From Eledone cirrhosa (taxonomy: Eukaryota): a stretch of 64,000 nt of DNA. Made by a program: the position numbers and the translations under genes. The notes below the pieces were generated by a model, which was not told the origin of the DNA, searched no databases, and worked only from the letters and a program-made list of their open reading frames with translations. Position 1 is the first letter of the stretch. Each line of letters begins with the position of its first letter. Location of the stretch: contig OZ024754.1 of the NCBI GenBank assembly GCA_964016885.1, positions 11,718,001-11,782,000 on the forward strand. Reading direction: 5' to 3'. Below are positions 197-55,048 of this stretch, piece by piece.

Positions 197-530
197 ATAG
201 TTATGTAATAAACAACATAAGGCAATTATTTCATTTACCAGTGGTTTCTTAAAAGCAAAAAAATGTTGCTTTCAATCATCAGAATGAAAAAAATCCTGGC
301 GTATTTATTGACGTTGGATTTTAAAATCCTTAGGTTTTTAAAATCCAACGTCAATAAATACGCCAGGATTTTTTCATTCTGATGATTGAAAGCAAACATT
401 TTTTTGTTTTTAAGAAACCACTGGTAAATGAAATAATTGCCTTATGTTGTTTATTACATAACTATTAAGCTCTGTTACCTACATAGAGCACTCTTTTTTC
501 CTGGACTCTTCCGACAGAATTACTTCATTT
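197..530. mobile_element. Fold-back palindromic element (arms 197-~330 and ~332-465, plus a 65-bp one-sided extension) between (TA)n tracts
   Basis: About 130-bp near-perfect inverted arms centred on cct-t-agg; (TA)n on both sides. Confidence 0.75.
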
Positions 531-685
531 ATATATATATATATATATATATATATTAAAATAACAGATTAAAGTTTAAGCAAAGATTCGCTGCTTTCAC
601 CCTTAACGGTTCTTAATATTTGATATATATTTATCCTTATCGAGCCCTCTTTGGATTTTAGTCTTCAAATTTATTATTATTATTA

Positions 686-871
686 CGTGGATTGGCAGTA
701 TCGGTAGAGGGTCGGACGCCATGCTTTCCAGCATAGTTACGTCCCTTTACGATCCGAGTTCAAATCCCGCCGAGGTTGACTGTCTTTCATCCTTACGGGG
801 TCGATAAAATAAAGTACCAGTAACGCACTGGTTAATTGCTGACCTTGTGCTAACGTAGAAACAATTATTAC
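686..871 (+). mobile_element. tRNA-derived SINE (MetaSINE-like core); further copies at ~3880-4185(-), 8490-8592, 11578-11762, 21650-21790(-), 28075-28270(-), 34597-34740(-), 35115-35213(-), 50476-50662(-)
   Basis: A-box-like tggcagtatcggtag, B-box gagttcaaatccc, core gcctttcatccttacggggtcgataaaataaagtaccag, tail ccttgtgc..agtagaaacaattatta. Confidence 0.8.
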
Positions 872-3800
872 TATATATATATATATATATATATATATAT
901 ATATATATATATATATATATATATATATATATGCACACATATATATACACATAATATATTTACATAGAATACATATATATTCTAAGAAGGGCATCCTGCC
1001 GTAGAAAACTAGCCAGAGACATTTCTATATGATTAAGACACGGTCACCTGACCCAACTTGCCTCAAATGGGTCAACACGTCTAACCCATGCTAGCATGGA
1101 AAATGGACGTTAAACGAGAATGAATATATATATATATATATAATAAAATGTGTAAGTTTTTTGGGGGGAGGGGGTCCTAATTACATAAGGAAATTAAATT
1201 AATAACAGAAGACATGTCCAATCAGTTGTAAACTATGACAAGGAATGTTGGCGTTTCGAGGCCAACCAAAAAAAAAAAACCTGAATGTGCTGCCGCGGGA
1301 GATAGCGAGGCTAAGACACAAAATGAGTATCACCTGATACTTCAGTAAGGTGAGCCACCACTAACAATAATGGGAAATACCTCGTTGTCAGCGACCCAGC
1401 TCTTCCAAACCTCTCGAATGCCACAGGCTGGGGGGGGGGGGGGGAATAGTCGATATTACAACAGACCTGGTGTACAAAATAATATATGCCTACTCTATCT
1501 GCCTAACTATCCATCACACACAGCCATATACACACACACAATGAATGAATAAACTCAGCATTCAAGTGTCTGCATGGCTATATATTCTTCTCTGCATAGA
1601 TTAATTACTTTTTCTTCAACAGAATCTAAATCATACGAACTGTGACAGAGCGTTTAAATGATAATAACGAGCCACCAAGGATGTCAGTTTCTATGATGTG
1701 GGAAATTGACATGTTAGAGATTGTAACCAAATCACAAGTGTCAATGACGTGGTCACTCAACATGCTAAAGATAGAAGCCAAATCTTCCTTCAAATCACAA
1801 CACCCTAAACATGTTTAAACAAGACAAAACATTAAATAGTGTTGACCCAGGTATTTAAATGAGATGGATGAGCCAACAAGGGTATCTATGATGTGGTAAC
1901 ATAACATGCTAGAGATAATAGCCAAACCACACACCTTGTTAAACAAGACAAAACATATCGGATAAGGTACGCAATGTCTAAATTAAACAGCACATTAGAC
2001 CATTGGCCTGCTCCTTAATTAAGGTTGACCTGAGAGGGATCAACAACGAATACAAAAATTAGGGAAGATCAACGTTTGCTTACCTTGTATAGAACCTTCA
2101 CGTCAACAGTTTAACATCAGTATAGAGTAGTAGTAGTAGTAATGATGTTATTTATTAATAGTAGTAATGGTGGTGGTAGTAGCAGCTGTAGTGTGTGCGT
2201 ATATATATATATTTATTTATAATAAGTAGTTAATAAAAATAGTATGTGGTGCAGAGACAGAAGAAGAAAAAATATGATAATAGTACAGAATAATACTATT
2301 ATTATTGTTGTTGTCGTTATTAAGTGCTGTGGTAGCGGGTGTATTTTCTATCCGTCTATCTCTCCCTCCCTATCTTTATTTATTTTTTTCCACGATCACC
2401 TCCCTTTCCTGAGACTCTCCTTTATCGTTCAATATCCTGCTTTCTTTTCTCTACTCTCTTCTTTGTGTAATGCATTATCTCTTTCTTTCTCTATTCCTCC
2501 TACCCTCTGCTTTATATGCCTTTTCACTTTTTCACCACCCAACAATTCCTTGCTTTATAAAATGTGTTATCTCTCTTTCTTCTCTCCTCCTACTCCCTGC
2601 TTTATGCCTACTCGCGTATATAGCGTGGGAGGAAAAGAGATGTTAAATTTTGCATTTGCCCCCTCTCTCTCTCTCTCTTACTTTCAGTATTACACACTTT
2701 TTTCTTACCTCTCACCCTCTCTTTTTCTCATTCTTTTTTCTCCTTGTATCTCTTACACAACACGCAATACAAAATGGTAGCTACAAAAAAAGCAGACGAT
2801 TTATAAACTATTCTACGGAAGGACACAAAGGGTTTAAAATACTAATTGTGTTTATGTTAATTTAATTTCTTTTACCAATTTACCTATAAAATTGAATTAT
2901 TCTCCCCAGAATTTCAGCTCTCATCTAACCTCACTCTCGTCAATGATGTTTTCTGCAAAACTTCAGAACCCAATTTGAACTGGTAACTCGAGTCAGCTTT
3001 TGTCTTTTGGGTTGACAATGGCCTCCCTGTACGCCAATATGCAAAATGGCAACGCAACCAGGATGACATCAAGTGCAGTTCAACCTGCACTCAGATTGTG
3101 TATTCTTTGGACTAATACTGTCTTGTTTGCCTCTGGGCTGCCTCACAGCCAAAAAGTGGCTACATTTGGTGCTCTCTTTATCAACTGGTATCCTTCTTGA
3201 TGAGTTCACCTGAATCAAATTGAGCCTGCAGATTGGCCTCTGCATCACAAATGCCGTTGTAAAGCTATGGTCAATGAGTTGAGACTACATCTGCCCTCTA
3301 GTTGTCACAGTGCAGATTGGTTCTCTCAGCAAACTACTTTCGATAACATCCATGAGAAAGAGCCTGAATGGACACTACCAGTTTTCCATCACAACTGGAG
3401 TCTGCTGACCTGATGGCAGTGCTGGGACTTACCTAAAAGCTATAGCTTAGGGCCACGCACCATCGGGGGATTCATTTAAAAAAATATATTTTCATTTTAT
3501 CATAAGTTTTTATTCTTTGATACTAAATTATATATACATATATACATATAGTGAAGTTTTTGCTCCGACATAGCTGTAAAAAGCACCCAGTTCAAGCTGT
3601 AAATGTGGATGGTGTAAGGAAGGGCATCAAGCTGTAGAATCCAAGCCAGAGACAGTTCTGTGCAAGCAAGACACAGTCACCTGATCTGACTTGTCTTACA
3701 ACAGGACCACTCGACAAACCCAAACTAGCGTTGAAAATGGTCGTAAAACCGTTACGATGTGGATGATCATGACAAAGGGGGAAAAGACCCCCTTCAGACA

Positions 3801-52477: not shown

Positions 52478-52776
52478 ATATATATATATATGCATATATA
52501 TATATATATGCATATATATATATATATATATATATATGCATATATATATATATATGCATATATATATATATGCATATATATATATATATATATATATATA
52601 TATATATATGCATATATATATATATACATATATATATATATATATATGCATATATATATATATATATGCATATATATATATATATATGCATATATATATA
52701 TATATATGCATATATATATATATATATATATGCATATATATATATATATATATGCATATATATATATATATATATG

Positions 52777-53312
52777 TAGATAAATCTACCAAGAGTTTAC
52801 GGTAGTGTCCAATCCGTATGAAGAACTCAATGTATTCCGGATATCATGGAAAGAAGAGATGTAATGAAAATCCACTTTCGGTGAAAGATAAACGGTATAC
52901 AGAGTCAAGATAAAATATTAAACAAATAATGAACAAACAATTCCTTATATTAAACAAAAAAAGTTCACTATTTAACGATCGTTTCTAGGGTATATATGTG
53001 TTATAATTGGTATGCATATTTAACAGATCTATGTACAAAATTATACAAAATTATACAAATTATCAAGATTAAATATACATACCTAACTCATATATACGCA
53101 GTCTTCAGAAAAATGAAGACGGCGTATATATGAGTTAGGTATTGTATATTTAATCTTGATAATTTGTATAATTTTGTATAATTTTGTACATAGATCTGTT
53201 AAATATGCATACCAATTATAACACATATATACCCTAGAAACGATCGTTAAATAGTGAACTTTTTTTGTTTAATATAAGGAATTGTTTGTTCATTATTTGT
53301 TTAATATTTTAT
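52777..53312. mobile_element. Fold-back palindromic element (arms 52910-53312, left extension 52777-52909) in (TA)n
   Basis: About 198-bp inverted arms around gtcttca-gaaaaa-tgaagac. Confidence 0.75.
52971..53111 (-). ncRNA. Hammerhead-like motif with very long stem II
   Basis: ttt CTGAAGA c tgcgtatatatgagttagg...(about 115 nt, self-complementary)...taacacatatatacccta GAAA c-gatc-g TT aaa; the base of stem II is imperfect. Confidence 0.45.
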
Positions 53313-54556
53313 ATATATATATATATATATATATATGCATATATATATATATATATATGCATATATATATATATATATGCATATATATATATATATATAT
53401 ATATATATATGCATATATATATATATATATATATGCATATATATATATATATATATATGCATATATATATATATATATATGCATATATATATACTATATA
53501 TATATATATGCATATATATATATATATATATATATATATATATGCATATATATATATATATATATATATATATATATATATATATATATATATATATATA
53601 TATATATATATGCATATATATATATATATATATATATATATATATATGCATATATATATATATATATATATATATATATATATATGCATATATATATATA
53701 TATATATATGCATATATATATATATATATATATATGCATATATATATATATATATATATGCATATATATATATATATATATATATATATATGCATATATA
53801 TATATATATATATATATATATATATATGCATATATATATATATATATATATATATATATATATGCATATATATATATATATATATATATATATATATATA
53901 TGCATATATATATATATATATATGCATATATATATATATATATATATATTGCATATATATATATATATATATATATGCATATATATATATATATATATAT
54001 GCATATATATATATATATATATGCATATATATATATATATATATATGCATATATATATATATATATATATGCATATATATATATATATATATATGCATAT
54101 ATATATATGCATATATATATGCATATATATATACATATATATATATATATATATATATGCATATATATATGCATATATATATATATATGCATATATATAT
54201 ATATATATATGCATATATATATGCATATATATATGCATATATATATATATATGCATATATATATGCATATATATATGCATATATATATATATATATATAT
54301 ATATGCATATATATATATATATATGCATATATATATGCATATATATATGCATATATAAATGCATATATATATATATATATATATATATGCATATATAAAT
54401 GCATATATATATATATATATATATATGCATATATATATATATATATATATATATATATATATATATGCATATATATATATATATATATATATATATATAT
54501 ATATATGCATATATATATATATATATATATATATATTATATATATATATATATATA

Positions 54557-55048
54557 TATAAACGTTAGAATATGTGTAATAAGGCCCAAGACAATGCAGG
54601 TATGGACATAGAAAAAAGAATGCAATAGTGAAAGATATTGATGTGAATTCGTCTTTCACCTTGAATTTATTTAGATGTCCTTAATTTTCGAGATAATATC
54701 TCTTCTTCGGAGGGAAGTAAAGGTCTCAAACCAGCGTCTTAAAATCTCTAATCAAGCCATGTTGACCGGAAATAGTACAGATACTCTATACTATTTCCGG
54801 TCAGCATGGCTTGATTAGAGATTTTAAGACGCTGGTTTGAGACCTTTACTTCAATCCGAAGAAGAGATATTATCTCGAAAATTAAGGACATCTAAATAAA
54901 TTCAAGGTGAAAGACGAATTCACATCAATATCTTTCACTATTGCATTCTTTTTTCTATGTCCATACCTGCATTGTCTTGGCCTTGTTACACATATTCTAA
55001 CGTTTATACCTCATTACACAATGCTTCAAGTGAACTATAACCTCCTCC
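54557..55048. mobile_element. Fold-back palindromic element (arms 54557-55008, 40-bp right extension) in (TA)n
   Basis: About 220-bp inverted arms; each arm has the degenerate core CCGAAGA-a-gagata-t-tatctc-GAAA. Confidence 0.75.

Follow-up and report, generated by a model that had tools for sequence, protein, structure and literature searches.

Palindromic elements in (TA)n tracts of the Eledone cirrhosa genome as probable end pieces of Penelope-like retroelements

Elements with inverted arms, a (TA)n target and hammerhead ribozymes have already been published for the Penelope-like elements (PLEs) (Craig 2021, PMC8557442; Cervera 2014, PMC4209133; PMC8969392). Nearly all families of the Hydra clade insert in (TA)n, with one Octopus family listed, and Penelope-13_HM of this clade has a 5'-truncated inverted copy with hammerheads on both strands (PMC8557442), as is the case here. 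Pairs of hammerheads on opposite strands, 100-700 bp apart, have been traced to truncated PLEs (PMC4209133). For Poseidon_Ac, it was shown in vitro that both DNA strands are cut and extended, that two internal start sites of the reverse transcriptase (RT) bound the tail, and that ribozyme cleavage is not needed (PMC11167929). The integration route of PLEs was left open by Craig 2021 and Frangieh 2024. Here, we analysed 64,000 nucleotides of Eledone cirrhosa (assembly GCA_964016885.1, contig OZ024754.1, positions 11,718,001 to 11,782,000, forward strand; hereafter the window) that contain five palindromic elements: E1 (197-530), E2 (30521-31016), E3 (33502-33703), E4 (52777-53312) and E5 (54557-55048). 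Our analysis leaves little doubt that they are end pieces devoid of open reading frames (ORFs), each made of an inverted pseudo-long terminal repeat (pLTR), a pLTR and a tail, of five autonomous PLE families present in the same genome. Taken as elements, they are ordinary products of PLE insertion; what makes them valuable is the natural record of PLE integration that they provide.

The initial annotation, made from the letters of the window alone, had described five mutually dissimilar fold-back elements with an extension on one side, and these are indeed present. Local alignment, together with a self-BLAST of the window after microsatellite masking, recovered near-spacerless palindromes at 200-462, 30559-31016, 33503-33621, 52913-53309 and 54561-55004, with arms 84-97% identical, and the self-BLAST detected no similarity among the five elements. 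All of them are multicopy. Searches of the 3.0-Gb genome seeded with each element gave 1644-4384 first-look candidates per family, of which the best 40 were scored, and every arm was found on many contigs with full-length relatives, so that none is single-copy. Sharp ends and TA-repeat flanks were observed in 125 distinct loci examined. In samples selected by their tail (30 loci per family, 150 in total, with 73 inverted arms or palindromes scored), (TA)n lies within 24 nt downstream of 134/150 copies and upstream of 68/73 inverted arms, against a background of 230/1403 points (16%), in agreement with the (TA)n association first noticed. The one-sided tail is present in all five elements and measures about 65 nt in the E1 family, 95 nt in E2, 79 nt in E3, 134 nt in E4 and 39 nt in E5, the window copy of E2 being shortened by an internal deletion. 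PLE tails are usually quoted as 30-40 bp.

The PLE connection, the ribozymes and the TA targeting proposed initially all stand, but the interpretation of E1-E5 as distinct ORF-less, non-autonomous or retrozyme-like families does not: the expected linkage of the arms to GIY-YIG/RT Penelope ORFs was found for all five families, and each arm plus tail corresponds to the pLTR and the start of the next unit of an autonomous RT and GIY-YIG element in the genome. These families display the attributes of endonuclease-bearing PLEs, with an RT and GIY-YIG ORF, tandem or partially tandem pLTRs, an inverted 5'-truncated copy, a one-sided tail and a type I hammerhead fold in the pLTR. The E4 arm and tail recur every 6.05-6.08 kb in head-to-tail coding units, and an intact 813-amino-acid ORF was present at all four fetched loci. 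Pfam gave no match on this ORF, although it carries the RT and endonuclease motifs of the Hydra clade (RWR, DKT and a complete CxCx5C linker). The 3' untranslated region (UTR) of about 3 kb is rich in TA/TG repeats (unit at locus L251). Since at least 1486 E4 pLTR copies are identical over 34 nt in an exact genome-wide pattern search, this family is young, and its intact ORFs make it a Hydra-clade system suited to in vitro work. Some E5 matches consist of a single arm and tail whose flanks carry an RT and GIY-YIG ORF, the tail being its first codons; at locus L157 this ORF is open from its Met over 860 amino acids, with Pfam matches to RVT_1 (E 2e-15) and GIY-YIG (4e-5). The E4 and E5 arms are 97-99% identical to the pLTRs of coding copies. 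For the other families, the parents are less complete: the E1 tail is followed by ORF pieces in tandem copies (RWK, DKT, complete CxCx5C), E2 is found as pLTR-ORF-pLTR in broken copies (loci L409-L411; RWK, DKT), and for E3, in 21/30 loci, one Hydra-type endonuclease family is followed within 1.5 kb downstream by the arm, on the same strand and again in broken copies. A tblastn search of the window with the proteins of E4 and E5 detected no PLE ORF fragment.

By their motifs, the parents of E1-E4 appear to belong with the Hydra clade. They share with it RWK/RWR and DKT (this region was recovered for E1, E2 and E4), YRDD, a CxCx5C linker without CCHH, (TA)n insertion and a type I pLTR hammerhead (PMC8557442). 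The linker is complete in E1 and E4 and present with single changes in E2 and E3 copies, and CxxC and CxH occur near the C-terminus. Their hammerheads differ from those of Hydra-1_oBim, which makes them other families. In addition, the E4 unit of 6.06 kb with its long microsatellite-rich 3' UTR contrasts with the Hydra elements, generally <3 kb, and the 116-nt stem II of E4 and the U3-A8 core of E3 are absent among the Hydra rows compared in Craig file S2 (PMC8557442). The E5 parent is seemingly of the CCHH type and Nematis-like: it has GPKF, DKG, YVDD and, at the C-terminus, a GIY-YIG domain with CCHH, and the spacing of its short Cys linker resembles that in the Nematis rows of Craig Fig. 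S2 (PMC8557442). It differs from the Nematis/Neptune type by the lack of the third linker Cys, a U4C hammerhead core and a 3-bp stem I. Its protein has 130 homologues in our search, mostly unnamed and including a UniRef entry 61% identical from Octopus bimaculoides, and these do not settle its clade. Two neighbouring coding regions were also observed. At locus L403 (5655-7636), a truncated ORF with about 80% identity to the E4 protein comes closely after an E1 pLTR and tail, either a nested insertion or a chimera, and at locus L153 (7345-9183, minus strand) a 613-amino-acid open frame of another RT and GIY-YIG PLE family adjoins an E5 copy.

The hammerheads had first been recognized by a loose CUGANGA...GAAA motif, which is weak evidence by itself, being present in 9-19% of shuffles of the E1, E2, E4 and E5 arms. 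We rely on a structural type I hammerhead descriptor, which was relaxed once after a stricter version had missed E2 and E4. The window copies scored above 2000/2000 (E1), 2000/2000 (E2) and 1999/2000 (E4) shuffles, while the E5 score is marginal, being reached by 10/2000 shuffles. Full folds were obtained for both arms of E1, both arms of E2 and the sense arm of E4; after correction, E1 folds with its second GAAA (414), and in E4 the GAAA follows the core at a distance of 116 nt. Among family copies, the descriptor matched 24/29 (E1), 15/18 (E2), 28/30 (E4), 16/18 (E5, weakly) and 0/30 (E3 solos). By this descriptor, the hammerheads of E1, E2 and E4 are structurally sound. The E5 core is a U4C variant with a 3-bp stem I. 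Solo E3 copies hold only the 3' half of a U3-A8 hammerhead, and longer copies have a UUGAUAA core with the full U3-A8 fold when read by eye, of which the descriptor caught 1/26; a covariant U3-A8 core was described by Cervera and De la Pena 2014 (PMC4209133). Rfam, named in the initial annotation as a means of detection, matched neither the E1 nor the E2 arm to a hammerhead family at E<=10, and these variants needed the custom descriptor. In the Rfam scan of the whole window, nearly all of the matches listed (150 of 445) were microRNA models on TA repeats. The unconstrained fold of E1 is a three-way junction with an energy no better than shuffles (z -0.7), and stem II of E4 is a 116-nt hairpin (z -5.5). 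We also noticed in an E4 pLTR (locus L252, 6972-7105) a GT...AG stretch of about 98 nt within stem II, 33 nt past the putative transcription start, which resembles the pLTR intron of D. virilis Penelope. An intron is not supported here: no spliced form occurred in the short contigs of four runs, none of which spans E4, and the stretch forms one long hairpin with the z score just given. A search for RNA runs that contain the elements listed none; neither this result nor the short contigs weigh in either direction.

How such palindromes arise is suggested by their ends. We consider it likely that the five elements were made by cutting of both strands of (TA)n, with each DNA end priming cDNA on uncleaved mRNA, and fairly probable that each palindrome combines two separate cDNAs. 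The GIY-YIG endonuclease would cut both strands of the (TA)n tract, and each cut end would prime its own cDNA on uncleaved element mRNA. The outer ends would be two internal RT start sites, as for Poseidon_Ac in vitro, and the tail presumably the stretch between them. Since such start sites would be found again in the first pLTR, 140-340 nt from the 5' end of the mRNA, the RT would often run off the capped end, placing a C across from the cap. Head-to-head joining of both cDNA ends would follow, with an overlap or filler of a few bases. Poseidon_Ac resembles the route proposed for E1-E5 in its both-strand cutting and extension, AT-rich target, two RT starts bounding the tail and independence from ribozyme cleavage; it belongs to another clade, and inverted solos, inner ends and cap copying are not treated in the sections of that study compared here (PMC11167929). 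Our literature search retrieved neither cap copying nor start-site run-off for PLEs, most subscription papers (e.g. Arkhipova 2006) being outside its coverage. The family-specific clustering of inner ends upstream of the ribozyme cut, the untemplated G of E1 and the reading in terms of start site and cap are what the present analysis adds.

The outer ends are fixed. Each family has its own site, 39-134 nt in from the tail end, at which the inverted arm starts, and the outer end of this arm falls on one base in 17/18 (E1), 18/22 (E3), 7/7 (E4) and 11/12 (E5) arms, pre-filtered to within 12 nt. The inner ends are clustered: the densest 9-nt window holds 11/47 (E1), 12/36 (E2), 31/52 (E3), 8/18 (E4) and 8/26 (E5) of them, densities that a crude uniform null attained in 25, 0, 0, 0 and 0 of 5000 draws, respectively (44/150 copies running beyond -450 were omitted). 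These clusters lie 40-170 nt upstream of the predicted ribozyme cut. Only 3/179 ends are within 3 nt of that cut (6.5 expected), which rules out the cut as the palindrome centre, and 149/179 read through it. The hot windows of E2, E3, E4 and E5 coincide with TCA or TTA words, which are initiator-like when compared with the initiator consensus. In E4, up to 625 arms end at the peak base and 1486 read through. An untemplated G precedes the peak end in 19/22 (E1), 10/23 (E2) and 2/5 (E4) cases versus 13/78 elsewhere. Genome-wide exact patterns at the preferred E1 end gave 60 matches with G versus 11 with A or C, and among the first 100 read-through matches listed, out of 203, 2 have that G. In L1, cap copying leaves an extra G as its mark (PMC11702581), and for Penelope of D. 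virilis the start of the transcript is inside the pLTR (PMC2377424).

It is tempting to suggest that the inner ends arise by run-off where the first pLTR has its capped 5' end, an origin that we hold to be slightly more probable than not. With slightly less assurance, the palindromes may be seen as the PLE equivalent of strong-stop DNA, whose centre would record the transcription start to the base, the hammerhead being bypassed. Several observations weigh against run-off. The preferred E1 end is not initiator-like, E3 ends sharply but lacks the extra G (1/15 at the A), and in E5 the ends are spread broadly, another cluster lying at a TATA palindrome. The extra-G peak was picked after looking, and that sample was in part chosen by resemblance to the window copies. 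Genome-wide, the enrichment in G is modest in both E2 (34 in the first 100 listed of 182) and E4 (22 in the first 100 listed of 625), as counted by eye, and some G's of E2 are derivable from the opposite arm. Alternatively, the preferred inner ends could be RT stalls or microhomology joins at local hairpins or palindromes rather than RNA 5' ends, which we regard as a serious but less probable possibility. Self-complementary words do occur at or near the ends of E1 (TTTTAAAA) and E2 (TCATATGA), E4 has a 5-bp hairpin, E5 its TATA cluster, and E3 ends inside a long stem-loop, without G; natural inverted repeats as the main determinant of the centres are only partly supported and were kept under this alternative. 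Against it, the same base is the stopping point of E2 copies that have no inverted arm, the G of E1 matches the template of neither arm, and junction overlaps are often zero or negative. If run-off at the capped end is the correct reading, the centres predict exact start sites for several families, and ribozyme-cut RNA would not be the usual template. It would also explain why PLE hammerheads are found mostly as singles or as close pairs on opposite strands, and the one-sided tail, the inverted pLTR and the great number of solo hammerheads found in the genomes of animals would all follow from a single mechanism.

A second alternative keeps the PLE origin and derives the palindrome from fold-back self-priming of one strand, as proposed for the junction palindromes of Adineta vaga Penelope (PMC3846280). 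Arms are more alike within than between copies (97.8 versus 93.7% identity in E2, 98.9 versus 94.0% in E5), which also suits fold-back copying or conversion between arms, though both models allow it, and in the window copy of E2 both arms share one stem I change. Yet the two arms end independently. The inverted arm exceeds the sense arm by >20 nt in 20/73 palindromes and is >20 nt shorter in 4/73 (24/73 differ), while the tail is found only on the sense arm; since each arm holds sequence absent from the other, neither can have been copied from its partner unless a deletion came afterwards. These unequal, independent ends argue for two cDNAs and against simple fold-back. Moreover, the extra G may be on either arm, sometimes on both with filler between. 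We consider self-priming unlikely. A parallel to two cDNAs is L1 twin priming, in which a second cDNA is primed from the other DNA end and an extra G is found at full-length 5' junctions; L1 inversions copy different parts of the RNA, whereas the arms of E1-E5 copy the same stretch and yield a palindrome (PMC11702581). At loci L004/L005, L063, L084, L138/L139 and L248, the tail stands on both sides, both arms starting at the distal site.

It is much less probable that each family propagates itself as a non-autonomous, retrozyme- or SINE-like (short interspersed element) lineage from a fixed palindromic master mobilized in trans. Exact junctions do recur, with 32 of the first 100 listed E4 matches in 16 perfect pairs (by eye), a recurring GAAC(A/T)GTTC junction in E3 and the TATA junction in E5, and some copies have the two-sided tails just mentioned. 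Most junctions, however, differ, and arm lengths vary continuously from copy to copy, as expected of separate insertion products; the 97-99% identity of the E4 and E5 arms to the pLTRs of coding copies also opposes a master, and no head-to-tail arrays of a short unit were found in the fetched loci. Non-LTR retrozymes share with E1-E5 a type I hammerhead, a pLTR relationship and the absence of an ORF (bioRxiv 10.64898/2026.07.22.740005), but they are head-to-tail tandems (bioRxiv 10.64898/2026.07.22.740005; PMC6765202), whereas E1-E5 are head-to-head solos with autonomous parents. In the loci examined, the only tandems seen were full coding units. A minority of the palindromes may nevertheless derive from secondary mobilization. 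Finally, an assembly fold-back artefact, or a miniature inverted-repeat or foldback DNA transposon with TA duplication, might be suspected from near-perfect palindromes beside very long TA runs, but can practically be dismissed given that the copies are numerous and dispersed, share their ends, show arm differences and carry a one-sided tail in place of symmetric termini, and given the direct continuity of the arms with RT-endonuclease ORFs.

In the window copy of E1, the inverted pLTR arm (200-328, minus strand) has its outer end at the family proximal site (tail -65), a hammerhead core at 282 and a predicted cut after 236. The untemplated G at 333 is followed by the preferred 5' end, G 334, a putative RNA start (plus strand). 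From there, the sense arm (334-462, plus strand), attributable to a Hydra-clade parent, carries a type I hammerhead with CUGAUGA at 379-385, a stem II of 11-12 bp, GAAA at 414 and a predicted GUA cut after 426; the tail (463-529, plus strand) runs on into 5' UTR and ORF in tandem copies. E2 lies in the opposite orientation. Its tail remnant (30530-30558, minus strand) precedes a sense pLTR arm (30559-30794, minus strand), also assigned to a Hydra-clade parent, with a minimal hammerhead core at 30662, a palindromic stem III, one stem I mismatch in this copy and a predicted AUA cut after 30618. The inverted arm (30791-31016, plus strand) begins at the A of TCA(+1)TAT, with a core at 30913 and a predicted cut after 30957.

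E3 consists of an inverted arm (33503-33561, minus strand), a sense arm (33562-33621, plus strand) and a tail (33622-33702, plus strand). The sense arm begins at the A of TTA(+1)GTT, within the loop of stem II in the U3-A8 hammerhead of the parent, so that only the 3' half of the ribozyme is included, and this half is degraded in the window copy. A sister E3 subfamily (loci L227, L232, L249 and L288) has the same tail and stem III but a stem II strand that differs; it likewise makes palindromes, often adjoining E3 copies. The 134-nt tail of E4 (52777-52909, minus strand) is joined to a sense pLTR arm (52910-53115, minus strand) of the young, apparently Hydra-clade parent found in 6.06-kb tandems, with the core at 53108, the extended stem II of 116 nt and a predicted GUU cut after 52974. 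In its inverted arm (53113-53310, plus strand), the core at the junction is without C3. E5 comprises an inverted arm (54560-54783, minus strand) with the variant hammerhead CCGAAGA at 54710 and a 3-bp stem I, a sense pLTR arm (54778-55005, plus strand) from the CCHH-type parent with the variant core at 54856 and a mutated stem I in this copy, and a tail (55006-55046, plus strand) containing the first codons of the parent ORF.

Other repeats surround these elements. A second E3-family tail at 102-161 (87% identical to 33642-33701) ends in the (TA)n tract holding E1, and E4 and E5 lie in or beside a TA/TGCA microsatellite field of more than 10 kb (52476-64000). Weaker palindromes, with arms 76-88% identical and without comparable TA flanks, were observed at 19782-19863, 23152-23422, 25774-25882 and 40521-40648, that at 23152 being centred on a SINE piece. 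SINE-like sequences with a tRNA-like head form a dispersed family, present at 665-870 and in at least 12 further places of the window, and tandem arrays occupy 31417-33258 (40 bp x 46), 37895-39036 (56 bp x 21) and 49133-50126 (71 bp x 14).

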